Part shown: positions 3,868 to 59,480 of the stretch, piece after piece
How the letters are laid out: each line of letters opens with the position of its first letter
How positions within the stretch are numbered: position 1 is the stretch's first letter
Origin: Candidatus Spongiihabitans sp.
GTDB lineage: Bacteria > Pseudomonadota > Gammaproteobacteria > Arenicellales > Poriferihabitantaceae
Direction: 5' to 3'
Length of the DNA: 64,000 nucleotides
NCBI GenBank assembly: GCA_965261335.1
Contig: OZ253450.1
Location: forward strand, 2,519,492 to 2,583,491
Program-made: the position numbers and the translations under genes
Notes under the pieces: model-generated
The model's database searches: none
Told to the model about the DNA's origin: nothing
Seen by the model: only the letters and a program-made list of their open reading frames with translations

Positions 3868-4050
3868 TACAATCAAAATGTTCGAAAATGGGAGTTTGCC
3901 TATGATTACTCCTCGACAATTGTTCATCGCCTTGTTCCTTGCTAGGCATGTATTACATGTGGAAAACCCTGGCGGGTTTGTGTGTTTGACTGGATTCCTG
4001 CTTTCGAGACTGTGCAAAAAACCAATATTTGTCTTTCCTAACCCCCCTTG

Positions 4051-4100
4051 CCCCCCTTATCAGGGGGGAATTAGAGTGACAAGTCCCCCTGATAAGGGGG
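4051..4100. repeat. Pair of G/C-clamp hairpins in inverted orientation, followed by a G-run
   Basis: CCCCCCTTATCAGGGGGG (4051-4068) and CCCCCTGATAAGGGGG (4085-4100) are each self-complementary and reverse complements of each other. GGGGGATTTGGGGGGGTGGG follows. Confidence 0.8.
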
Positions 4101-4191
4101 ATTTGGGGGGGTGGGTTTTCCGCCAGCGTAACCTGCGAGGGTTTCTTGCACAATCTCTTTGCACGGATGAAGCCACGCTTCCGATAATGAT

Positions 4192-4242
4192 ACCCGCAGG
4201 GCACAAGTACCCACAGGGCACAAGTACCCACAGGGCACAAGC
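4192..4242. repeat. Three tandem copies of a 17-nt unit ACCC(G/A)CAGGGCACAAG(T/C)
   Basis: Read directly: 4192-4208, 4209-4225, 4226-4242. The same 17-mer occurs as insertions in the IS5 copies at 36901, 53464, 58684 and 59248. Confidence 0.9.
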
Positions 4243-4259: not shown

Positions 4260-4727
4260 ATGAATATTAAACAAATAAGCGGTGATTTCGAAAATTGTTC
4301 CGGTCGCTATGCGTTGGTTGCCAGTCGCTTTAATCACTTCATCACCGAGCGTCTCATTCAGGGTGCGACAGATACCTTGAACCGTCATGGTATCAACAGT
4401 GCGGAGATTGACTGTATCTGGGTTCCCGGTGCTTTTGAAATACCGTTGGTGGCAAGAAAATTGGCGGAAAGCGGGAATTATGCGGCAATTATTACCCTAG
4501 GAGCGGTGATTCGCGGTGCGACCGCGCATTTTGATTTTGTTGCGGGTCAATGTGCCAGTGGCATTGCCCAATTAAACCTACAAAGTGATGTTCCCGTCAT
4601 TTTTGGTGTGTTGACTACCGACACCATCGAACAGGCGATTGAACGAGCTGGTAGCAAGGCTGGGAATAAAGGTGCGGACTGTGCGTTAGCCGCCATAGAA
4701 ATGGTCAGTTTGTTGAAGCAATTATGA
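4260..4727 (+). CDS. ribH: 6,7-dimethyl-8-ribityllumazine synthase
   Basis: Typical RibH sequence ([36 protein letters not shown]) in rib operon context. Confidence 0.93.
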
Positions 4728-12195: not shown

Positions 12196-13844
<1,649 letters not shown>

Positions 13845-13848
<4 letters not shown>

Positions 13849-14124: not shown

Positions 14125-16812
14125 CTACGGGGTGGTTGTGCCTGCACTAAACACCCAACATTTGACCGTTGCGGAGGCGACATTGTTATCACCGGCGTTA
14201 AGCGCGGAATTAACCGGCTTGATGGCGTAAAACTTGCGCTCTTTTGATGTTTTCAGGTGGTTTTTCAGCTCTATCAGCGGCGGAATCTCTTGCTTATTCT
14301 CGGCTGCGACATGGGTAAAATGATTGAGGTTAATCGCAATGAGCTGGTCGTTGCGAGAATGGTTGAGCGTGCTGTGTGGGTTGCCGTCATTAAGATATTC
14401 ATAGGTCTCCCAGAACTGTTGCACCACTGGATGATCCAATTCAAGGGCTTGTTGTCGCTCAATCGCCATTTGCTCAATACAGCTCTGAACCGACTGGCGT
14501 TGCTCGCTGGGCAGGTCAAGTAACGTGCTAAAAGCCGTCGCTAGGGACATAATCTGGGCATGATTTTTTGCCACACGCACCGATTTGATTTCGGTTAGTG
14601 ACAATAATTGTCGCTCATAAACGGGGGTGTTGCTTTTAACGCTCTCCATGATTTGTGCTTCATTCTGTACCGCTTGGTGCAGGAAAAAACTTAAATGCTT
14701 CGGCACAAGCAGATTCATTTCATCGGCGGCGCTTTTGCTTTGTGCTGAATGACCCGACCGATCCAAGCACAAATGAACAATGCGTTGCAGCACGGCTTCC
14801 GAGGCACTCACTGCTGTATTTTGGCTAATGACAATAGCCCCGCGAAACAGCGGCTCGTAGGTTTCGTTACCGTTGTTTTTTACTCCTCGCACACTACTTG
14901 CTCTACCGTTATACGCGGTTTTTAATTCATCCCAGTTAAAACCACGCAATTTGGCGGCACTGGCTTCACGATCCGCTTCAATCAAGACCACCGGCAAATT
15001 GCTGACCTGAGAAAATTTACGCGTTACCCCCGCAAACGAGGATTTAGTTGGATCAAAGCCTTCCTCGTCTTCCTTGCCCAATAATTTCCACATAAACTCA
15101 ACCAGCGTTGTCTTTCCGCCACCCGGTTCGCCAATAATTTCCAGAAAAGGAAAGCTCTTATGGATGGCTCTGATTTGTTCAGCAAATAACGAACCCATCC
15201 AAAAACTAACCGCAACCAAGCCCTTGCCACCAAAAGCGCGATAAACCATTTGTGTCCAATCCGCACGATAATCCGATCTGTCGCCAATGGACAAATGGAA
15301 GCCTTGATTCAAACTCTTAATCGCGATCTTGCCTATTTCAAAAAAATCCTCATCATTAATTTTATATGTTTTGCCCTGACTGACTGCCAAATCATTAAAA
15401 ACATAAGCCTTATGTGCTTTGCTATAGCCAATAAAATCGATGGTATCGACCACCTTGATATTGTGTATGTGATGTTTTACCAACCAGTCTAACTGCTTCG
15501 CATTGCCGCTAAACAATCCGCCGGGCGCAATCGACAATAAGCGTTTCTTAAACTCAGGGGCAGATGCGACTTGTCCGCCGGTAAAGGTGTTTTTGATTGT
15601 TTTACCGTTATGCGGAAATTGCACTCTACAGTAATACCAGCTCTCATCCGTCAGCTTGTTCGATTGATAGTACAGAAAGCTCGGCTGGCAATTGGCAACA
15701 TCGCTTAATGTCCCTGATTGCTCGGCTGCCTTAGTGCGTATTTGTGCGGCGGTGTGTTTATGTCCACGATTCTTATCGGAGGCATCGGAGGCACTAGCAA
15801 TGCTTTCGGTGGCTTTGTTGAACTTGTCAACATCCAAATCAAACCAATACATACGGCGATTAAAATCAAAACAAAAGCCGCTCATGTTTTTCCTGTTCCA
15901 GATAAGCAATGCTTTGTCTAACGCGCTTTTGGCAATCAGCAAACTGCCATGATAAAGATATTCTTCGCGGTGCTTTTCGCTTAATCGCTGGCTGATATGA
16001 CAATCGTTCCAGTCGGTTTTTAGGTTGTTTTTTTGTGGTATTTGGGCGGCTTGCACACAAAGCCCCTCCTCGCGACCACGCTTGATAAACTTTCTGAGGT
16101 AGCGTCTGCCAGCGGGGTCGTTATCCAAAGCCCAAACCCAAGTCACTTTTTTGCTCGTATGCTGCGCAAATTGTTTATCCGGATAATTGACGCACGAAAG
16201 TGTCGCCACCGCTTTTTGTCCATTTTGCTGTAGCGCAATCGCATCCAGACAGCCCTCAACCAGCCAGATGGTGTCGCCGTGATTGATTTGTAAGTCCGGT
16301 GGTTGCCACCAAAGACCACGATAGGCACCTTTATAATGCGCTCTGCGCGGCTTTTTCTCGCCGAATTCGTCGCTAATCAATATCTCTTCGACAAAACGCT
16401 CCATGTAAATATCATGGGCGCGGTCAATATCAAAACGCACGGTGGCGGTGCCTTTGTTGGCATCCGGGTGCCAGAAACCACCTTGTCGATACCAACCTTT
16501 AATGCTCGCCAGATCAAAGCCGCGGGCATACTGCATATAAGCATCAGCAGTCGCATTTGGATTCGTTTGGGTGGCGACAAAAAGCCGATTAAAGGAGGCA
16601 AAAACGTCCGGATAAAGTGTTTTGGTATATTCTTCCCAGCCACATTTATTGGCCCGACCGCAACGCACCACCAACGGCTGTTCCACATGGGCAAATAATT
16701 CTTTTTTACCGCAGTGCGGGCAAATGCCCCGCTGTAACCATTTGCCACGTTCTATCATTTCGTAGTCGGCGATCAGCCGTGCGACAATGTCATGCTGAAT
16801 ATCTTTACGCAT
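14125..16812 (-). CDS. Primase-helicase: zinc ribbon + Toprim + P-loop NTPase
   Basis: CPHCGKKE...CGRANKCGW zinc ribbon, Toprim acidic motifs (LVEGCLDAIAL, ALDNDPAG), Walker A GEPGGGKTT. The likely start is MRKDIQHD at 16812, not the upstream ATG of the ORF track. Confidence 0.8.
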   Translation of the reverse strand: MRKDIQHDIVARLIADYEMIERGKWLQRGICPHCGKKELFAHVEQPLVVRCGRANKCGWEEYTKTLYPDVFASFNRLFVATQTNPNATADAYMQYARGFDLASIKGWYRQGGFWHPDANKGTATVRFDIDRAHDIYMERFVEEILISDEFGEKKPRRAHYKGAYRGLWWQPPDLQINHGDTIWLVEGCLDAIALQQNGQKAVATLSCVNYPDKQFAQHTSKKVTWVWALDNDPAGRRYLRKFIKRGREEGLCVQAAQIPQKNNLKTDWNDCHISQRLSEKHREEYLYHGSLLIAKSALDKALLIWNRKNMSGFCFDFNRRMYWFDLDVDKFNKATESIASASDASDKNRGHKHTAAQIRTKAAEQSGTLSDVANCQPSFLYYQSNKLTDESWYYCRVQFPHNGKTIKNTFTGGQVASAPEFKKRLLSIAPGGLFSGNAKQLDWLVKHHIHNIKVVDTIDFIGYSKAHKAYVFNDLAVSQGKTYKINDEDFFEIGKIAIKSLNQGFHLSIGDRSDYRADWTQMVYRAFGGKGLVAVSFWMGSLFAEQIRAIHKSFPFLEIIGEPGGGKTTLVEFMWKLLGKEDEEGFDPTKSSFAGVTRKFSQVSNLPVVLIEADREASAAKLRGFNWDELKTAYNGRASSVRGVKNNGNETYEPLFRGAIVISQNTAVSASEAVLQRIVHLCLDRSGHSAQSKSAADEMNLLVPKHLSFFLHQAVQNEAQIMESVKSNTPVYERQLLSLTEIKSVRVAKNHAQIMSLATAFSTLLDLPSEQRQSVQSCIEQMAIERQQALELDHPVVQQFWETYEYLNDGNPHSTLNHSRNDQLIAINLNHFTHVAAENKQEIPPLIELKNHLKTSKERKFYAIKPVNSALNAGDNNVASATVKCWVFSAGTTTP

Positions 16813-16819
16813 AAGGGTC
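16704..16819. repeat. 116-bp direct repeat, copy 1 (5' end of the primase gene)
   Basis: Identical to 17563-17678 except for 2 mismatches (read by eye). Confidence 0.9.
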
Positions 16820-17210: not shown

Positions 17211-17512
17211 TCTGCACGTTTTCTGCGCTGTTGTGCTACGGCAGCCGTCGCCGTCATACGCTTGCGTCTCAAAACCTCAGGGCTATCAATTAAAAAGGTT
17301 TCCCCCGTTTGACTAACCGTAACGTATTGCTTACCTTCGGGTGCTTTTCTCCTCGTTGGCTCGGGGTGACCTGCACGTTTTCTGCGCTGTTGTGCTACGG
17401 CAGCCATCGCCGTCATACGCTTGCGTCTCAAAACCTCATGGTTGTCAATTAAAAAGGTTTCCCCCGTTTGACTAACCGTAACGTATTGCTTACCTTCGGG
17501 TGCTTTCATCAT
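17186..17512 (-). CDS. Hypothetical basic protein made of two fused 53-aa repeats
   Basis: A 159-bp tandem duplication (17212-17370 / 17371-17529) encodes APEGKQYVTVSQTGETFLID..EVLRRKRMTA.AAVAQQRRKRA twice. Confidence 0.5.
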   Translation of the reverse strand: MMKAPEGKQYVTVSQTGETFLIDNHEVLRRKRMTAMAAVAQQRRKRAGHPEPTRRKAPEGKQYVTVSQTGETFLIDSPEVLRRKRMTATAAVAQQRRKRADYSSRPGK

Positions 17513-17562: not shown

Positions 17563-17678
17563 TTTTACCGCAGTCCGGGCAAATGCCCCGCTGTAACCAT
17601 TTGCCACGTTCTATCATTTCGTAGTCGGCGATCAGCCGTGCGACAATGTCATGCTGAATATCTTTACGCATGAGGGTC
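17563..17678. repeat. 116-bp direct repeat, copy 2 (orphan duplicate of the primase 5' end; would encode a 40-aa stub)
   Basis: See 16704-16819. The stub reads MRKDIQHDIVARLIADYEMIERGKWLQRGICPDCGKSVGK. Confidence 0.9.
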
Positions 17679-29875: not shown

Positions 29876-31870
29876 ATGATTGCTAAAATTGCACAGCGAA
29901 AAAAAGGCGCGAAATCATCATTTGTAACACTGGCGAACTACATCACAAAACAACAAAAACTGGCTGATGGCACAGCCAAAACAAGCCGCTTAACATTCAC
30001 CAATTGCACCGCATTGGATATGCAGAATGCACTGAACGAAATTGTTGAAACACAAAAGAAAAATCAAACCACCAAAGCCGACAAAACCTATCACCTCATC
30101 GTCTCATTCCCGCTCGGCGAAAGACCTGATAACAAAACACTGCACGACATTGAAGCGTCTCTGGTGGACGCAGTCGGACTCAATGAACACCAGAGAATGA
30201 GTGCGATTCATTGCGACACATCGTATTATCACATGCACATTGGGGTGAATAAAATACATCCTCATACGGCTGCTATCGCTACGCTCAAGCATGACTATAA
30301 CAAATTGCAACAGGCGAGTAGGGCGTTAGAGAACAAGCATAATCTACAAAAACTAAATGCCAGTGTGGGTATCGACATCAAACAGCTTGCAGATGAATTG
30401 CACGATGAAATTGATGTAGCTATGCGGAATCCTACCGCAAACTGGGCAAATGTGCATGCTGTATTTGCACGGCGAAAACTTAAAATCAAACCGAGCGGAC
30501 GAGGCTTGCAGGTTGTTGATGCACAGGGTACGCAAATCCTAAAAGCCTCTGAGATTAGTCGTGACTGCTCAAGAGCCAATTTAGAGAAAAAATTGGGTCC
30601 GTTTGAAATTGACCAAAAAGACAACCAAGCACCAATATCACCTACCGCAGAACGCATTGAAAGAAGCGCGAAGATCGAGTCATTCCAGACTTGGGCAAAG
30701 AAAGTATTGACAGAGACTTTGCCCTCGGTTTTAGATAATCCAAGTGCCCGATGGCACGACATACACGCCATGCTCGCACAACATGGACTACGCATAACGA
30801 CATCTGGACGTGGGCTGACAATGACAGATAATGCGGGTAAAAATGCCGTTAAGCCGTCCCAAATCAGTCGCGATTACTCAAGAGCAAAATTAGAACAAAA
30901 ATTAGGACCTTTTGAGCAAAAGCAATCCAGCCTGAAAGTCAAACGATGCCAATACAAACGCACCGCATCACAAAAACACGCTAACACACAGCCCTTGTGG
31001 GACGAATATACGCAACTAAAAGAATCAGCAAAGCAGGCGAGAAAGAACCAATACGCTGAATATGTTAGAGACCGTGATGACCACGCTGGGCAACTTAAAT
31101 CTGAGTTTGCAGCCGCACGAAACGCTATTTGGAAGGACGATTTGCTTACCGTAGCAACGAAACGACAAATGGCAAAGAAACTGGCACGAAAACGGCAAGC
31201 AGCTTTAGAAAAATTAGCCAACGATAACGCCAAGCGGCGCGACCAGATCAACGCAAGCACACATTGTCCATGTTGGCGCGATTATTTGCTCGACAAAGCG
31301 CAAGCAGGCGATGCGCGTGCTATACCGGCTTTGCGTAACAATAAATCACGTTCATCACAAGAAAATCTGGCTGATGACTACGCGCTTTACCGACAAAATA
31401 AGCAACAAACCAAAGAGGAGATGTATAACGAATTTAATGACTTGCGCAACCGAATTTGGGCAGATAATTTACTCAGCGCAAAACGTAAATATGCGCTTAA
31501 TCAATATATCAATCGGCGGCAAAAAAAAGCAATGGCGCATGTCCAAGGAGCTGGATGGCACGATTTTTTACAAGAAAAAGCACAGCAGGGCAATCTGACT
31601 GCCCAGGTCGCATTAAATCAAGAAAAGACGGATCTACAAAACTCAACAACGGTCAATATTGAGTTTGCAGAAACGCTCCTAGCATCAAAAAATAAACAGT
31701 TTCAGGTAAAACCGAATGGCGACATCATGCCAAAAAAAGATGTTTTAATCCGTAACAATAAAATTCAAATTCTCGCTGTATCCGGGTGCGAAGCCGCCTT
31801 TCATATCGCATCACGACTTTATAACTGGTTGCGACAAGCACCACAACAAACAGAAAAAGAGAGGGGCTGA
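29876..31870 (+). CDS. traI: MOB-P-type relaxase (TraI/VirD2 family)
   Basis: LANYITK (Tyr motif), YHLIVSFP, HUH-type motif HCDTSYYHMHIGVNKIH. The C-terminal half has an internal repeat (...SGRGL.V.D..G....KPS.ISRD.SRA.LE.KLGPFE twice). Confidence 0.85.
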   Translation: MIAKIAQRKKGAKSSFVTLANYITKQQKLADGTAKTSRLTFTNCTALDMQNALNEIVETQKKNQTTKADKTYHLIVSFPLGERPDNKTLHDIEASLVDAVGLNEHQRMSAIHCDTSYYHMHIGVNKIHPHTAAIATLKHDYNKLQQASRALENKHNLQKLNASVGIDIKQLADELHDEIDVAMRNPTANWANVHAVFARRKLKIKPSGRGLQVVDAQGTQILKASEISRDCSRANLEKKLGPFEIDQKDNQAPISPTAERIERSAKIESFQTWAKKVLTETLPSVLDNPSARWHDIHAMLAQHGLRITTSGRGLTMTDNAGKNAVKPSQISRDYSRAKLEQKLGPFEQKQSSLKVKRCQYKRTASQKHANTQPLWDEYTQLKESAKQARKNQYAEYVRDRDDHAGQLKSEFAAARNAIWKDDLLTVATKRQMAKKLARKRQAALEKLANDNAKRRDQINASTHCPCWRDYLLDKAQAGDARAIPALRNNKSRSSQENLADDYALYRQNKQQTKEEMYNEFNDLRNRIWADNLLSAKRKYALNQYINRRQKKAMAHVQGAGWHDFLQEKAQQGNLTAQVALNQEKTDLQNSTTVNIEFAETLLASKNKQFQVKPNGDIMPKKDVLIRNNKIQILAVSGCEAAFHIASRLYNWLRQAPQQTEKERG

Positions 31871-36658: not shown

Positions 36659-37926
36659 GAGACCTTTGCATAAATCCACCCGGGGCACCACTTAAAATGG
36701 TAAAATAGCGTTCATTCAATAAACCCTTGAGGATACCGTCAAATGTCTTGGAAATAAACCGCCCAATACGCGTTCGCAGATGCTCTTTTAATTGAGCATA
36801 AGTCATTGTCCAAACTAGATGATGTGCATGAAATTATCGATTGGAAACAGATCGAAAAAACGCTCAGCCATCTTTATGCTAGCAAGCGTGGTGTGCCGGC
36901 ACTTGTGCCCTTTGGCTATGCCCACCTTTGATGATGTTTAAGATACTGATTTTACAGGCGTAGTATAACTTAAGCGATGAAGCCTTAGAAGAACAGATAG
37001 CCCGGGATTTAATGTTCCGCCGGTTTATTGGTTTGAGTCTCAGTGATGCAGTACCCGATCATTCCACTATTTGGCGGTTTAGGAACTTATTACACACCGA
37101 AAATCTGCTTGATTCTTTATTGGTGCAGATCAATCATCTCGCTAAAAACAGTCTTATTGTTGCCACAGGCTCGGTCAATATTATCGATGCGACTGTGATT
37201 GAGGCGAAGCAATGCCGTTCTAAAAAGAACAAACAAGGCACAATACCCAAGACCGGAAGCGGCATGGAACGTGAAAACGGCATCCGATGGCAGGCGTAAA
37301 AGCACCTACGGATTTAAGATGCACGCCAATACCGATGAAGATGGTTTTATCAAGAAAATGACCTATACGCCTGGCAATGTGCATGATTCACAGGAGTTTG
37401 AACATCTGTTAGGCGATAGGCACGGACAAGTTTACGCAGACAGTGCCTATGCCAACAAAGACAATGACGAGAAACTGGGTAAAGAAAACAATAGAATCCT
37501 GCACCGAGCTTATCGCAACACACCATTAACGGAGCAACAAAAAGCACTGAATAAAATGTATAGCAGTGTCCGCTATGTGGTTGAACGCACCTTTGGCTTA
37601 CTCAAACTGCATCACGGATTAGGCAAGGCAAGATACATGGGGTTAGCCAGAAACAAAACCCGTGCACATCTGATTGCCATGAGCCATAACCTTAAAACTG
37701 GGATGAATATTTTCAAAGAACTGCAACGTTTAAAGGAGAGTTGTGCCTAAATGGGCAATAAAACAGATTAAAACCCACTAAAAGTGGTTAAAAGTGCCGA
37801 AATAGCGGCTTTTTTGGTGTCGTATTGATGATTGAGAGAACATGGGCGAAAAAATGAGGCAAATTTATAAAAAATCGCGTTGTTTGTGAGTTGCGAGGGG
37901 TGTTTTGTGGATTATGCAAAAGTCTC
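36659..37926 (+). mobile_element. IS5-family IS, copy A (transposase disrupted)
   Basis: Terminal inverted repeats GAGACCTTTGCATAAATCCAC / GTGGATTATGCAAAAGTCTC. The transposase is split (37012-37299, 37199-37750) and the N-terminus is broken by stops and a 17-nt insert at 36901-36917. No flanking target duplication was seen. Confidence 0.85.
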
Positions 37927-51986: not shown

Positions 51987-53008
51987 ATAGAGCGGTCAAC
52001 GTATTTAATCAATGGATACGTTTCCCCAAAGAAGCGCGTGCGATGTTTTATGAAGTCATGGAAGCGCAATTGGAGGCTGGTTTGCCCTTAAAGAAAGTGT
52101 TTGAAGTTTTACATCGTGATTTGAACGTATCGCCTGAAATAACGCGGGTGTCTGCTGCTGGCTATCAAGCGATCAGTCAAGGTCGGTTAGGCACTGAGGG
52201 ACTCGCTGATTGTAACTTGCTGCCGGTGGATGAGGCTTATTTGCTCATTGCGGCGGAAAAAAAAGATGTCTTGATTCAAGTTTTGCGCCAACTGCGTGAG
52301 CGCGCAGAAGCGGATGCTACGTTCTGCCAAGATGTCATTGTAGCGAATTTGTATTATATCGTCTTGGTGTCGCTACTGGGTTACATGGCACTTAAAACCA
52401 AGGATCTCGCAACCGCTTTCGGTAATTTTGTTTCATTGGATGACAATCCAGCCTATCAATTAAGTCTAACACTCAATGAGTATGGGACTCCGGTCGCGTT
52501 TAGTGTCGTTATCATTAGCATCTTCGTTTGGTTTTGTGCCAATCATTGGTATCACCCATTGCGCCGTTATGTGTGGTTTTTTTCAACGGATATACAGCTG
52601 CAAATTGGTGTTAAATTTAGTGCGTTATCGAGTGCTTTTTATTCAATTGGCGCAACACACAGTGATGTGTTGCAAGCGGCGACAGCCGTTTTTCATGGCT
52701 CGGGCTTTATGCGCGGTGCGCTTGCAGATTTGATTGCTCGGTATGAGTCTGAAGGTGATTCGTATAATGAGGCGTTAGGTGACACCGTGTTGCATCCGGA
52801 CATTGCGATGGCAATTATGGCAATGACACCGGCGGAGGATCGGGCGGCTTTTTCTCGCGCACATGTTGCTGCCGAAAAGTTGCAAATCAGTTTGATTAAA
52901 CAACGCCACGGCAAAGCAAAATTGTTAGTGCAATTGGTATTGCTGGGGGCAATTAGTTATATGCTTCTGACGATGTTGATTGGTTTATATAGTGAGACTT
53001 TTGCATAA
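51974..53008 (+). CDS. pilR: PilR-type (GspF/PilC family) platform protein; last 4 codons supplied by IS5 copy B
   Basis: Two GspF-like repeats with TM helices. The IS end begins at 52994, so the tail ETFA is IS-encoded. The native tail IYNF-stop is readable after the IS at 54276. Confidence 0.8.
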   Translation: MGSLNRAVNVFNQWIRFPKEARAMFYEVMEAQLEAGLPLKKVFEVLHRDLNVSPEITRVSAAGYQAISQGRLGTEGLADCNLLPVDEAYLLIAAEKKDVLIQVLRQLRERAEADATFCQDVIVANLYYIVLVSLLGYMALKTKDLATAFGNFVSLDDNPAYQLSLTLNEYGTPVAFSVVIISIFVWFCANHWYHPLRRYVWFFSTDIQLQIGVKFSALSSAFYSIGATHSDVLQAATAVFHGSGFMRGALADLIARYESEGDSYNEALGDTVLHPDIAMAIMAMTPAEDRAAFSRAHVAAEKLQISLIKQRHGKAKLLVQLVLLGAISYMLLTMLIGLYSETFA

Positions 53009-54270
53009 TCCACAAAACACCCCTCGCAACTCACAAACAACGTGATTTTTTATAAATTTGCCTCATTTTTTCGCCCATGTTCTCTCAATCATCAATACGA
53101 CACCAAAAAAGCCTCTATTTCGGCACTTTTAACCACTTTTAGTGGGTTTTTATCTGTTTTATTGCCCATTTAGGCACAACTCTCCTTTAAACGTTGCAGT
53201 TCTTTGAAAATATTCATCCCAGTTTTAAGGTTATGGCTCATGGCAATCAGATGTGCGCGGGGTTTGTTTCTGGCTAACCCCATGTATCTTGCCTTGCCTA
53301 ATCCGTGATGCAGTTTGAGCAAACCAAAGGTGCGTTCAACCACATAGCGGACACTGCTATACATTTTATTCAGTGCTTTTTGTTGCTCCGTTAATGGTGT
53401 GTTGCGATAAGCTCGGTGCAGGATTCTATTGTCTGCTTTACCCAGTTTCTCGTCATTGTTGGCACTTGTGCCCTGTGGGTATAGGCACTGTCTGCGTAAA
53501 CTTGTCCGTGCCTATCGCCTAACAGATGTTCAAACTCCCCAAAATCATGCAATGAATCATGCACATTGCCAGGCGTAGTGGTCATTTTCTTGATAACCAT
53601 CTTCATCGGTATTGGCGTGCAACTTAAATCCGTAGGTACTTTTACGCCTGCCATCGGATGCCGTTTTCACGTTCCATGCCGCTTCTGGGTCTTGGGTATT
53701 GTCGCCTTGTTTGTTCTTTTTAGAACGGCATTGCTTCGCCTCAATCACAGTCGCATCGATAATATTGACCGAGCCTGTGGCAACAATAAGACTGTTTTTA
53801 GCGAGATGGTTATTGATCTGCACCAATAAAGAATCAAGCAGATTTTCGGTGTGTAATAAGTTCCTAAACCGCCAAATAGTGGAATGATCGGGTACTGCAT
53901 CACTGAGACTCAAACCAATAAACCGGCGGAACATTAAATCCCGGGCTATCTGTTCTTCTAAGGCTTCATCGCTTAAGTTATACCACGCCTGTAAAATCAG
54001 TATCTTAAACATCATCAAAGGTGGGTATGCTGGCACACCGCGCTTGCTGGCATAAAGATGGCTGAGCGTTTTTTCGATCTGTTTCCAATCGATAATTTCA
54101 TGCACATCATCTAGTTTGGACAATGACTTATGCTCAATTAAAAGGGCATCTGCGAACGAGTATTGGGCGGTTTGTTTCCAAGACATTTGACGGTATCCTC
54201 AAGGGTTTATTGAATGAACGCTATTTTACCATTTTAAGTGGGGCCCTGGGTGGATTTATGCAAAGGTCTC
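52994..54270 (-). mobile_element. IS5-family IS, copy B (transposase frameshifted), simple insertion with a 5-bp flanking direct repeat ATAGT
   Basis: Same inverted repeats as copy A. ATAGT at 52989-52993 and 54271-54275. ORF fragments at 53557-54186, 53391-53654 and 53170-53364. 17-nt insert at 53464-53480. Confidence 0.88.
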
Positions 54271-57058: not shown

Positions 57059-58167
57059 GTGCAACACTCGGGTTTATATTATGATCTATTCCTATTGCGT
57101 GGGAAAAGACCTCCCAAGGGGTTTTATACCCCAAACATTTTCTAGGTCGGTTGTTCATTAAATCGGTCGCTTTGAACCGCTCTTTTTCGGTGACTTTATG
57201 CAAAGGCATTTTCTTTGGAAAAAACTGCCTGAACAAAAAGTATGAGCAAGCCATTGTGCCAGATGATTATTTGGCATTCAAGCCACGCTCCCAAGAGTGA
57301 TACGGTTTAGCAAAATAAGTTTCACACTCGAGTTGTTTAGCAAGCTCACTATGCCAACAAAATTCTCTGCCGTTATCAAAGGTTAGGGTCATTACATGTT
57401 GTTTCATATGCTTTAACAACCTGAGTATAGCCGCGTTGGTTTCTTTTGCGGTTTTGTTCTTAGTCCGAAGTGCGAGATAAAGCCTACTTTTGCGTTCAGC
57501 AAGGGTGGCAAACACCCCTTGACGACCCTTACGGATAACACAATCAGCCTCCCCCCTCTATCACTACGCCTATACGCGAGCGACTGTCCACCATGCGGGG
57601 TCTATCAGCAATATCAACCCGATTGGGGATGCGTCCGCGGTAATCGTTCTGTCCATAACGCTTGCGATATTTCTTACCCTGATGGCGCAAGTATCGATAT
57701 AACGACCCATCCGCTACTTTGTCTTTCAAAATGAGACGATAGATGGATTCGGTGCTAATACTGATGTTTTCCTCCATTTTCAAACGACCGCTAATTTGTT
57801 CATGACTCCAATACAGTGCAAGCTTTTGTTGAATATGAAGCTTTAACTCGTCATTGAGCTTGATGTGCTTGGGCTTTTGCTGATGCCTCGTTTGGGCAAA
57901 GCGGTGGGCTTGTTTGTAGCGATAGCCGTTGCCCCCGGTATTGCGTTTAATTTCACTGCTGATGGTTGACTTAACTTCTGCCCATGGTTTTAGCGATTTC
58001 TGTCAGTGTACAGTTTTGCTGATTCATGAGGTAAATGTGGTATCTTTCGTGTTCAGTCAAATGGGTATATCTCGTCATGTTTTACTCCTTTTTTCCGTTC
58101 AGTTAAAAGAGTACGAGTGTACCCTTTGACTGACTTAGGAGTGTTGCACTTATTATGTGAATTCAAG
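57044..58167 (-). mobile_element. IS30-family IS, copy 2 (transposase degraded into at least 4 fragments)
   Basis: Inverted repeats GAATTCAATCCATAAGTGCAACAC / GAATTCACATAATAAGTGCAACAC. ORF fragments at 57544-57783, 57267-57515 and 57048-57254. Indels relative to copy 1. Confidence 0.85.
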
Positions 58168-58207: not shown

Positions 58208-59397
58208 GAGACTTTTGCATAATCCACAAAACACCCCTCGCAACTCACAAACAACGCGATTTTTTATAAATTTGCCTCATTTTTTCGCCCATGTTCTCTC
58301 AATCATCAATACGACACCAAAAATGCCGCTATTTCGGCACTTTTAACCACTTTTAGTGGGTTTTTATCTGTTTTATTGCCCATTTAGGCACAACTCTCCT
58401 TTAAACGTTGCAGTTCTTTGAAAATATTCATTCCAGTTTTAAGGTTATGGCTCATGGCAATCAGATGTACACGGGTTTTGTTTCTGGCTAACCCCATGTA
58501 TCTTGCCTTGCCTAATCCGTGATGCAGTTTGAGCAAACCAAAGGTGCGTTCAACCACATAGCGGACACTGCTATACATTTTATTCAGTGCTTTTTGTTGC
58601 TCCGTTAATGGTGTGTTGCGATAAGCTCGGTGCAGGATTCTATTGTTTTCTTTACCCAGTTTCTGGTCATTGTCTTTGTTGGCACTTGTGCCCTTTGGGT
58701 ATAGGCACTGTCTGCGTAAACTTGTCCGTGCCTATCGCCTAACAGATGTTCAAACTCCCCAAAATCATGCAATGAATCATGCACATTACCATGCGTATAG
58801 GTCATTTTCTTGATAACCATCTTCATCGGTATTGGCGTGCAGCTTAAATCCGTAGGTACTTTTACGCCTGCCATCGGATGCCGTTTTCACGTTCCATGCC
58901 GCTTCCGGTCTTGGGTATTGTGCCTTGTTTGTTCTTTTTAGAACGGCATTGCTTCGCCTCAATCACAGTCGCATCGATAATATTGACCGAGCCTGTGGCA
59001 ACAATAAGACTGTTTTTAGCGAGATGGTTATTGATCTGCATCAATAAAGAATCAAGCAGATTTTCGGTGTGTAATAAGTTCCTAAACCGCCAAATAGTGG
59101 AATGATCGGGTACTGCATCACTGAGACTCAAACCAATAAACCGGCGGAACATTAAATCCCGGGCTATCTGTTCTTCATAAGGCTTCATCGCTTAAGTTAT
59201 ACCGTGCCTGTAAAATCAGTATCTTAAACATCATCAAAGGTGGGCATACCCAAAGGACACAAGTGCTGGCACACCGCGCTTGGAGGCATAAAGATGGCTG
59301 AGCGTTTTTTCGATCTGTTTCCAATCGATAATTTCATGCACATCATCTAGTTTGGACAATGACTTATGCTCAATTAAAAGGGCATCTGCGAACGAGT
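58208..59397 (-). mobile_element. IS5-family IS, copy C (5'-truncated, transposase disrupted)
   Basis: The right inverted repeat is present at 58208. Similarity to copy B stops at about 59397. 17-nt inserts at 58684-58700 and 59248-59264. Confidence 0.85.
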
Positions 59398-59480
59398 ACC
59401 CAAATCCCCAGATAGAGTGGCGCTAGTGCTTCAAGAGCCTGTGAATCCCTCTTTCAAGTCTTATGGCTGGAAATTACAGC

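Follow-up and report, generated by a model that had tools for sequence, protein, structure and literature searches.

A 17-nucleotide unit triplicated upstream of ribH and inserted in IS5-family elements belongs to a widespread family of apparent small insertion elements

A 17-nt DNA unit, present as a tandem triplet upstream of ribH in a Candidatus Spongiihabitans genome and again inside IS5-family insertion sequences (IS), belongs to a family of what are very probably discrete insertion elements acting through a trans factor. A sequence-only reading had proposed that the unit behaves like a very small mobile or templated-insertion element. That proposal gains support from at least 113 stretches of other genomes that carry the 17-mer, from a flank signature shared among sites, from the open reading frames (ORFs) that reappear when units are removed, and from a recurrently hit site in IS3 elements.

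The triplet lies at positions 4192-4242 of the window, which is the whole 64,000-nt stretch of DNA analyzed here, and both its coordinates and its sequences were confirmed. It occupies the ribBA–ribH intergenic region, with its last base 17 nt upstream of the ribH ATG (4260), and TRF describes it as a repeat of period 17 with 3.0 copies, 97% matches, and a score of 95. The array and its neighbor are as follows.

4192-4208, forward strand: unit 1 of the ribH array, ACCCGCAGGGCACAAGT, GCA loop, T-end
4209-4225, forward strand: unit 2 of the ribH array, ACCCACAGGGCACAAGT, ACA loop, T-end
4226-4242, forward strand: unit 3 of the ribH array, ACCCACAGGGCACAAGC, ACA loop, C-end
4260..4727, forward strand: ribH, 6,7-dimethyl-8-ribityllumazine synthase (PF00885, DMRL_synthase), given for context only

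Four additional 17-mers, at 36901, 53464, 58684, and 59248, are likewise present, with zero to two mismatches. A census allowing at most three mismatches yields seven matches in the window versus 0.09 expected by chance, and none of 100 shuffled windows contains seven. Two weak matches, at 143-159 and 57676-57692 (ACCCTGATGGCGCAAGT), were rejected as family members; they are coding sequence inside an IS30-type transposase ORF. Beyond the rib operon, the window consists mostly of an integrative conjugative element adjoining tRNA-Met.

The four additional units reside in three copies of one IS, assigned to the IS5 family by the DUF772 and DDE_Tnp_1 domains found in homologous copies. Two sites, here called site 1 and site 2, are filled in some copies and empty in others.

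36659..37926, forward strand: IS_A, IS5-family, hosts one unit, transposase fragmented
52994..54270, reverse strand: IS_B, same IS as IS_A, hosts one unit, transposase fragmented
58208..59398, reverse strand: IS_C, same IS as IS_A, hosts two units, truncated at the transposase-start end
36901..36917, reverse strand: unit AGCCAAAGGGCACAAGT, site 2 of IS_A, antisense to the transposase, splits ...SKRGVPA^YPPLMMFK...
53464..53480, reverse strand: unit ACCCACAGGGCACAAGT, site 1 of IS_B, sense orientation, splits ...VYADSAY^ANKDNDEKLGK...
58684..58700, reverse strand: unit ACCCAAAGGGCACAAGT, site 1 of IS_C
59248..59264, forward strand: unit ACCCAAAGGACACAAGT, site 2 of IS_C
37443..37456, forward strand: empty site 1 in IS_A, GTGCCTAT^GCCAAC, junction between 37450 and 37451, frame continuous
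54020..54036, forward strand: empty site 2 in IS_B, GGTGGGTAT^GCTGGCAC, junction between 54028 and 54029, frame continuous

Each unit had been described as a clean insertion, and the alignment of IS_A, IS_B, and IS_C bears this out: every unit amounts to exactly 17 extra nt relative to a sister copy. At site 1, IS_B and IS_C carry the unit and IS_A lacks it; at site 2, where the unit has the opposite orientation, IS_A and IS_C carry it and IS_B lacks it. Translation runs unbroken across empty site 1 (...VYADSAYANKDNDEKLGK...) and across empty site 2 (...SKRGVPAYPPLMMFKIL...), in both cases as typical IS5 transposase, while the transposase frame is broken at each filled site. Because the empty sites encode continuous IS5 protein and the filled ones are frame-broken, the 17-mers are derived insertions rather than sequences deleted from the empty copies. 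Two further differences accompany the sites: base -3 of site 2 is C when filled and T when empty, and IS_B carries an additional 6-nt deletion adjoining site 1.

The same IS occurs in metagenome-assembled genomes (MAGs) of sponge symbionts at 90-97% identity. Across eight IS copies from five genomes, site 1 is filled in seven and site 2 in five, and the loop of the unit, its variable segment, is nearly always ACA at site 1 and always AAA at site 2. Since the loop variant is site-specific across genomes, most filled copies of this IS would descend from one insertion per site. The family to which the window's IS belongs probably received one hit per site, followed by recombination shuffling or by precise loss in IS_A.

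The structure of the unit is sharply defined. Its consensus is A-CCC-NNN-GGG-CA(C/T)AA(G/A)T, in which a 3-bp G/C stem encloses a free loop and is followed by a conserved tail. Neither the CCC and GGG runs nor the tail, CA(C/T)AA(G/A)T, changes from unit to unit. By contrast with these invariant parts, the loop varies in sequence (ACA, AAA, GCA, ATA, AGA, GGA, and TGA) and in length (CCC-TAAA-GGG): two to four free bases and then an A separate CCC from GGG, so that the unit is 17 nt long, or 18 nt with a 4-nt loop. An invariant stem and tail combined with a variable loop is the pattern of a mini-hairpin that would be recognized together with a single-stranded tail. Each unit has one such 3-bp hairpin and no terminal inverted repeats. 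The isolated hairpin is weak (-1.2 kcal/mol, z = -1.2).

The 17-mer is abundant elsewhere. We scanned one representative genome per species, for 185,579 species, with the query ACCCAMAGGGCACAAGT. The exact 17-mer occurs in at least 113 stretches of other genomes; by our own arithmetic, about 140 chance matches are expected collection-wide. The matches are far from random: Methylococcales, sponge-associated Arenicellales, Chromatiaceae, and Sulfuricellaceae dominate those listed, and many host genomes carry several matches each. Methylococcales hosts comprise Methylomonas, Methylobacter, Methylovulum, Methyloglobulus, Methylomagnum, and Methylotuvimicrobium, and Arenicellales hosts comprise Ca. 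Spongiihabitans and Poriferihabitaceae. Collapsing similar flanks leaves about 107 sites with unrelated flanks among the matches listed. No cyanobacterium is among the 113 or more genome matches listed.

A metagenome scan for two adjacent units revealed 12 further arrays of two to seven units. Arrays are also present in two Firmicutes-labelled MAGs, a label that comes from binning and may not name the true host: L052 has 3.3 units, located upstream of a short regulator-like gene (its translation was read by eye), and in L021 about 6.5 units, each 17-18 nt long, follow one another. Matches in Firmicutes isolates (Alkalibacillus, Kroppenstedtia, Paludifilum, and Brevibacillus) were rejected as unit insertions; there, the 17-mer is a fixed part of a larger conserved intergenic repeat in every copy, and it may reflect chance or a distant relationship. 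The 3-unit array found no match in the plasmid collection. IMG/VR supplied seven matches, of which five have chance-like flanks without the AT^G signature and two lie in the IS5-like transposase of one provirus, and on those seven a phage link was rejected.

Tabulation of the flanks of about 107 sites, among the matches listed, reveals a shared target consensus. Specifically, among the matches listed, position -1 is T at 81 of 104 sites (78%), position -2 is A at 51 of 104 (49%), and position +1 is G at 48, A at 31, and T at only three of 103 sites. In the window, AT precedes the unit in every case, as had been observed (left flanks GAT, CAT, TAT, TAT, and CAT in the motif orientation), and GC follows it in all four IS-borne copies. 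The empty site had been given as TAT^GC. Clean empty sites do exist, but that sequence is narrower than the actual preference: junctions read (A)T^G/A, often T^GC or T^GGC. There is no target duplication beyond the ambiguous T, and the orientation of the unit is fixed relative to the asymmetric target.

What the units interrupt is informative. We deleted units in silico and sought a long ORF across each junction. The ORFs restored in this way are nearly all transposases: IS5 (several elements), IS3, IS481-like, IS110, IS21, IS256, IS1182, and Y1_Tnp/RAYT. The junction in the IS481-like rve protein, for example, reads HSDNGSP^MKGATML. Four IS110 copies in Ca. Spongiihabitans carry units, an IS21 element carries them in both istA and istB, an IS1182-like transposase gene has two, an IS30-type gene has three (counted by eye), and the IS5-type copy in L099 packs four different units into about 500 bp. 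REPs are hosts as well. In Methylobacter REPs, the unit sits in the hairpin loop (GCGAAT^GAATTCGC), and it does so also in REPs from Chromatiaceae and metagenomes (CCGGCGAAT^GCCGG); in all cases inspected, REP-borne units have a single orientation relative to the REP. We noted just one inverted pair of units, with one member in each arm of a palindromic MITE (L115). More generally, 30 of 108 sites (28%) fall in the loop of a predicted stem of at least 4 bp, a modest enrichment over the 18.5% of control AT^G sites, with an MFE difference of p = 0.008. Relative to the ORFs that they break, units lie in both orientations, which argues that insertion occurs at the DNA level; insertion at the level of mRNA was rejected on the same ground. 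Units persist only in dispensable DNA: intergenic spacers, REPs, and IS or pseudogene DNA.

The strongest evidence for mobility comes from IS3 elements. In five of them (L007, L084, L089, L112, and L113), a unit interrupts the gene at one shared codon boundary, ...MA(F/L)^(W/L)(R/Q)RK.... Their 300-nt flanks are 54-81% identical, while their units differ at zero to two of 17 positions. Had one insertion been inherited from a distant common ancestor, it would be at least as diverged as the coding flanks around it. Thus, the five elements were hit independently and fairly recently at one hot spot. In two of the elements (L089 and L113), the predicted fold places the site in a small hairpin loop, GGCnTTT...AAAGCC. 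This recurrence is evidence of a process that is both active and site-selective.

The ribH array is itself changeable. Orthologous ribH loci come from two metagenome assemblies, in strains 97.4-99.7% identical. Two of these loci (L137 and L138) have a single unit, [ACA-C]; L001 has two, [GCA-T][ACA-C]; L002 and L136 have two in a different order, [ACA-C][GCA-C]; and the window has three. Compared for presence/absence polymorphism, the orthologous loci thus vary in copy number, which is one, two, or three, and no unit-free allele occurs among them. The window array equals the L001 array plus either one 17-nt slippage duplication or one consensus unit inserted after AAGT^, and the two routes are indistinguishable. 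No promoter-like site lies on the array on the + strand of the region, and terminator-like hairpins lie upstream of the array, with none on the array itself. Rfam 15, at the gathering threshold and at E-values up to 10, returned no meaningful match to the array, nor does any Rfam family cover the unit in the window or in 22 loci. We regard the ribH array as most likely neutral, a passenger of the rib-operon spacer that changes quickly. In L137 and L138, ribH is called with a 40-residue N-terminal extension.

How could so short a sequence be inserted? Units carry no gene and none is linked to them, so whatever machinery moves them would act in trans. A trans-acting enzyme would recognize the mini-hairpin and the 7-nt tail and would cut and join the unit. 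The whole unit is added as a block between T and the next base, usually G. Arrays could arise because the end of a unit, ...AAGT^A, resembles the target, and they would then grow or shrink by replication slippage. That the enzyme is a hairpin-specific single-stranded DNA strand transferase of the HUH/Y1 kind, with the chemistry of IS200/IS605 TnpA and RAYTs, is a tentative proposal made by analogy, favored because there is no target duplication, a hairpin is present, the 5' target is short, and the action is in trans. The combined picture, an ultra-small non-autonomous element family served by an HUH-type transferase, strikes us as having about even chances. Set against an HUH enzyme is the single weak hairpin, in place of two subterminal ones. 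IS608-like lagging-strand targeting predicts an orientation bias; orientation versus local GC skew stands at 23:23, although skew over an 8-kb locus reflects the replication strand poorly.

The suggestion that an enzyme might correlate with the 17-mer led to no encoded gene linked to it near units or arrays. When 2384 ORFs of the loci were clustered all against all, only disrupted transposases and unrelated housekeeping genes recurred, and the genes beside metagenome arrays are acnB, panC, gpsA, selO, and similar housekeeping genes. Among the window genes scanned, none encodes a Y1 protein or a reverse transcriptase (RT). A RAYT/Y1_Tnp gene was seen only once, in L114, where GTAG-type REPs flank it and a unit interrupts its coding sequence. 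A RAYT was accordingly rejected as the cognate enzyme, its sole example being a victim of a unit. A possibility we consider rather doubtful is a dedicated trans-acting machine conserved across phyla, either a strand transferase of a new kind, specific for hairpins, or a polymerase that copies a conserved master template. If it exists, the units would be the smallest known mobile DNA, and it would explain why near-identical units occur in Methylococcales, sponge symbionts, and Firmicutes despite unrelated surrounding DNA.

Among the rival explanations, the one that we take most seriously, while judging it improbable, is telomerase-like templated synthesis. The notion is that an RT or other polymerase that carries a fixed template of RNA or DNA would extend a nicked 3' end in T and add 17-nt copies, after which the gap would be sealed. 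Templated addition explains the arrays and the cross-taxon uniformity well. It would produce blocks of fixed length without target duplication; the T at -1 matches the last base of the unit, and re-alignment there would give arrays of two to seven; a conserved master template would yield near-identical units in distant taxa; and loop variants tend to be particular to a genome or array, which separate templates would produce. However, the base at -2 is mostly A, yet the penultimate base of the unit is G, and an RT or template gene is absent near any unit or array. Mixed-variant arrays are frequent (the window, L021, and L126-L130), and the single IS copy in L099 harbors several variants, which is not expected of a single template. 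Conservation of a stem around a free loop points to a hairpin, not to a linear template. To our knowledge, no bacterial template-directed system writes such repeats into chromosomes.

The abundance of broken transposase genes raises the idea that the cell silences transposons by directing 17-nt insertions into them, which we consider very unlikely. Transposase genes contain or adjoin at least 28 of the 110 non-redundant sites, many IS copies have two to four units, and a frameshift results from every unit borne by an IS. Among loci that carry such a unit, with the ascertaining unit removed, unit density is 0.29/kb in IS-like DNA versus 0.04/kb in other DNA. If about one-eighth of the other DNA is intergenic, which is an assumed figure, IS density equals intergenic density; on that assumption, tolerance in dispensable DNA suffices to explain the IS enrichment. 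IS-specific targeting was rejected after this normalization. In addition, REP loops and plain spacers host units equally, and second and third hits in an already dead IS would bring no benefit.

More improbable again is an account without mobility, in which the ribH array is a minisatellite grown by slippage and each IS site acquired one ancestral indel, later shuffled by recombination and carried to other genomes as the IS moved horizontally. Parts of it fit: one slippage duplication turns the 2-unit array of L001 into the 3-unit array of the window, the site-specific loop variants of the eight IS copies in five genomes agree with one insertion per site, and the IS is shared with sponge-symbiont MAGs at 90-97% identity. 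Ancestral indels plus recombination thus probably explain much of the filled and empty pattern in the window's own IS family, but in that family only. Overall the account fails. It leaves unexplained the approximately 107 unrelated-flank sites, the units in at least eight unrelated transposase families and in REP loops, and the near-identical IS3 units amid flanks of 54-81% identity. Even in the window's IS, two independent sites of opposite orientation gained the same 17 nt. The sequence-only reading had named its own downfall as a 17-mer found nowhere else in the genome, with the IS differences due to a single ancestral indel plus recombination; that objection fails in view of the dispersed sites, their shared flank signature, the restored ORFs, and the IS3 hot spot.

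Least credible is a selected functional motif (for instance a site bound by a protein, a signal for uptake or recombination, or a hairpin in RNA) arising in place by point mutation: conservation across taxa is strong and the array adjoins the ribH ribosome-binding site, just upstream of it, but filled and empty pairs differ by a 17-nt block and not by substitutions, units interrupt ORFs, and the array has neither an Rfam match nor a promoter or terminator signal. A specific binding protein, namely the mobilizing enzyme, could still exist.

With insertion of a discrete unit as the preferred reading, the closest known systems can be compared. The initial comparison was with the small dispersed repeats (SDRs) of cyanobacteria, without assignment to a described family, and SDRs are indeed the closest known relatives in kind. 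Reportedly, Elhai et al. described SDR1-8 of Nostoc punctiforme and other Nostocaceae in 2008 in Genome Res. Some SDR families have a hairpin, and their mobility has been inferred. We know of no enzyme for the Nostoc SDRs. The 17-mer family is also very short, non-coding, and both dispersed and tandem, and it too makes clean nested insertions with empty sister sites and a short specific target. Unlike the SDR unit of 21-27 nt, the unit here is 17-18 nt. Its hosts are Gamma- and Betaproteobacteria and Firmicutes-labelled MAGs rather than Nostocaceae, its target is T^G, often in REP loops, rather than HIP1, and the unit is common across phyla. In the SDR literature, SDR5 is nested in other mobile elements at HIP1 sites (PMC5861425), SDR copy number is variable (PMC2884548), and SDR-like repeats are reported absent outside Nostocaceae among the HIP1-enriched cyanobacteria examined (PMC5861425). 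The SDRs of Nostocaceae are also treated in PMC3116915.

REPs offer a second comparison. They are imperfect palindromes of 20-40 nt with a GTAG or CGTC tag; they are extragenic, mostly in inverted pairs, and they flank a RAYT gene (PMC3733652). REPs and REPINs are thought to be mobilized in trans by a single-copy RAYT acting on single-stranded DNA (PMC3116915, PMC3733652). The unit resembles them as a short hairpin repeat without a gene of its own and without target duplication. It differs in its 3-bp stem and its lack of a GTAG or CGTC tag, in occurring in direct arrays and inside IS ORFs, and in its relationship to REPs, whose loops are its insertion target; moreover, the sole RAYT seen (L114) is not flanked by units.

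Larger elements are more distant. IS200/IS605 members (IS608 and ISDra2) have two subterminal hairpins, guide sequences, a length of at least about 100 nt, and a strong lagging-strand bias. The unit shares with them an oriented insertion 3' of a short conserved sequence, the absence of duplication, and a hairpin within the element, but it has only 17 nt and one hairpin, and TnpA was not found near units. MITEs have terminal inverted repeats and a target-site duplication and usually exceed 50 nt; the 17-nt unit has neither feature. Mycobacterial MIRUs are 40-100 bp long and confined to their own loci. Like minisatellites and MIRUs, the ribH units are tandem in an operon spacer and differ in copy number between close strains, whereas single units of this family occupy more than 100 unrelated sites, including sites inside ORFs. 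Literature searches with the 17-mer sequence returned human or viral primer matches only, and searches on methanotroph repeats and on the smallest mobile repeats returned nothing relevant. The 17-mer family is widespread, apparently undescribed in the searchable literature, and different from SDRs in length, host range, target, and cross-phylum identity.

For the genomes that carry them, units are a source of frameshifts that help to fossilize IS elements of many families, and they make operon spacers differ in length between strains. They are also a hazard for annotation, as they split transposase ORFs and accompany the extended ribH calls in L137 and L138. Because the hosts include cultured, tractable methanotrophs (Methylotuvimicrobium buryatense 5G, Methylomonas, and Methylobacter), the question of how units move is directly testable. 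Should a dedicated enzyme exist, its ability to write a constant 17-nt tag into a short target would make it interesting in practice. Finally, a unit shorter than the Nostoc SDRs, with a sharply defined sequence and target, bears on how sequences of about 20 nt act as mobile DNA.

Two tail forms are found in the dispersed 17-nt unit, a mini-hairpin followed by a short tail. Specifically, units ending in CATAAAT in place of CACAAGT constitute a second subfamily, present at many loci (e.g., L006, L012, L051, L086, L095, L099, L127, and L133). Units of the two subfamilies occur together in the same genomes, and in several mixed arrays the CATAAAT-tail unit is the last (3') one. One unit breaks a RAYT-like gene, the Y1_Tnp gene of Methylomonas lenta (L114, 240-790), whose flanks carry GTAG-type REPs; the open reading frame is broken at ...RERGI^WQRRFW....

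In the Firmicutes isolates listed below, the exact 17-mer is a constant portion of a larger intergenic repeat that is conserved, multicopy, and roughly 100 nt or longer; it lies ~25-30 nt from the point at which the copies cease to align. The loci are:

Alkalibacillus: L005, L032, L035, L055, L058, L068, L072, L075, L092, L096, L103
Kroppenstedtia: L008, L040-L042, L080, L098, L102, L105
Paludifilum: L039, L047
Brevibacillus: L043, L069

Some copies occupy 5' leader positions (rpiB, fdhD). No Rfam match to these 17-mer-bearing repeats was found; a Bacillaceae-1 RNA lies ~200 nt away in L058 (a sub-threshold match) and in L075. In Kroppenstedtia sanguinis (L098 and L102), tandem 49-nt units (GATTGTAGTGCCCGTGGTGCTACCTTAATCTAGAGCTTCAGCTCCTTTG) reside upstream of the 17-mer, each holding a reverse-complement relative of the 17-nt unit core (GTGCCCGTGG).

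Mobile DNA occupies much of the window:

1-633 and 57267-58167, IS30-type insertion sequence, two copies or fragments, 96-97% identical
12196-57000, integrative conjugative element, adjoining tRNA-Met (12196-12272)
12229-13848, large serine recombinase, in the conjugative element
29876-31870, MobA/VirD2-type relaxase, in the conjugative element

The conjugative element also encodes a type IV secretion system (T4SS) coupling protein, VirB-type T4SS genes, a Toprim primase-like protein, a C5 DNA methylase, and two Fic proteins. A 99.99% identical copy exists in a second metagenome (L116). Two of the unit-carrying IS5 copies, IS_A and IS_B, break the element, and the third, IS_C (58208-59398), lies just outside it, directly adjoining the second IS30-type copy. 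Inside the element, beside the primase-like gene, a 159-bp unit is tandemly duplicated (17212-17506; 1.9 copies, 97%), and a 116-nt repeat lies on both sides of this duplication (16704-16819 and 17563-17678).

The ribBA-ribH spacer, which houses the triplicated unit, contains a further repeat:

4020-4125, G/C-run-rich MITE-like element, ~130 nt

Its layout is ...C6-ttg-C6-TTATCA-G6-aattagagtgacaagt-C5-TGATAA-G5-attt-G7.... Within it, ACAAGT followed by a C-run, loop, and G-run reproduces the layout of the 17-mer junction. The orthologous loci L002, L136, L137, and L138 also carry a 40-nt indel (TTGCACAGTCTCTTTCGCAGGAAAGATGAAT...TTT), the start of which is a near-repeat of the adjoining TTGCACAATCTCTTT; it lies upstream of the ribH array, at a distance of approximately 100 nt, and is absent from the window and L001. 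Gene calling extends ribH to 195 aa in two of these loci, L137 and L138. The G/C-run-rich element is common to the window and Ca. Spongiihabitans MAGs: it is also present in L010, L054, and L061, and five tandem copies exist in both L002 (5100-6200) and L136 (5600-6200). The element resembles the paired BoxC/intrastrand-triplex motifs of Holder et al. 2015 (PMC4666352).
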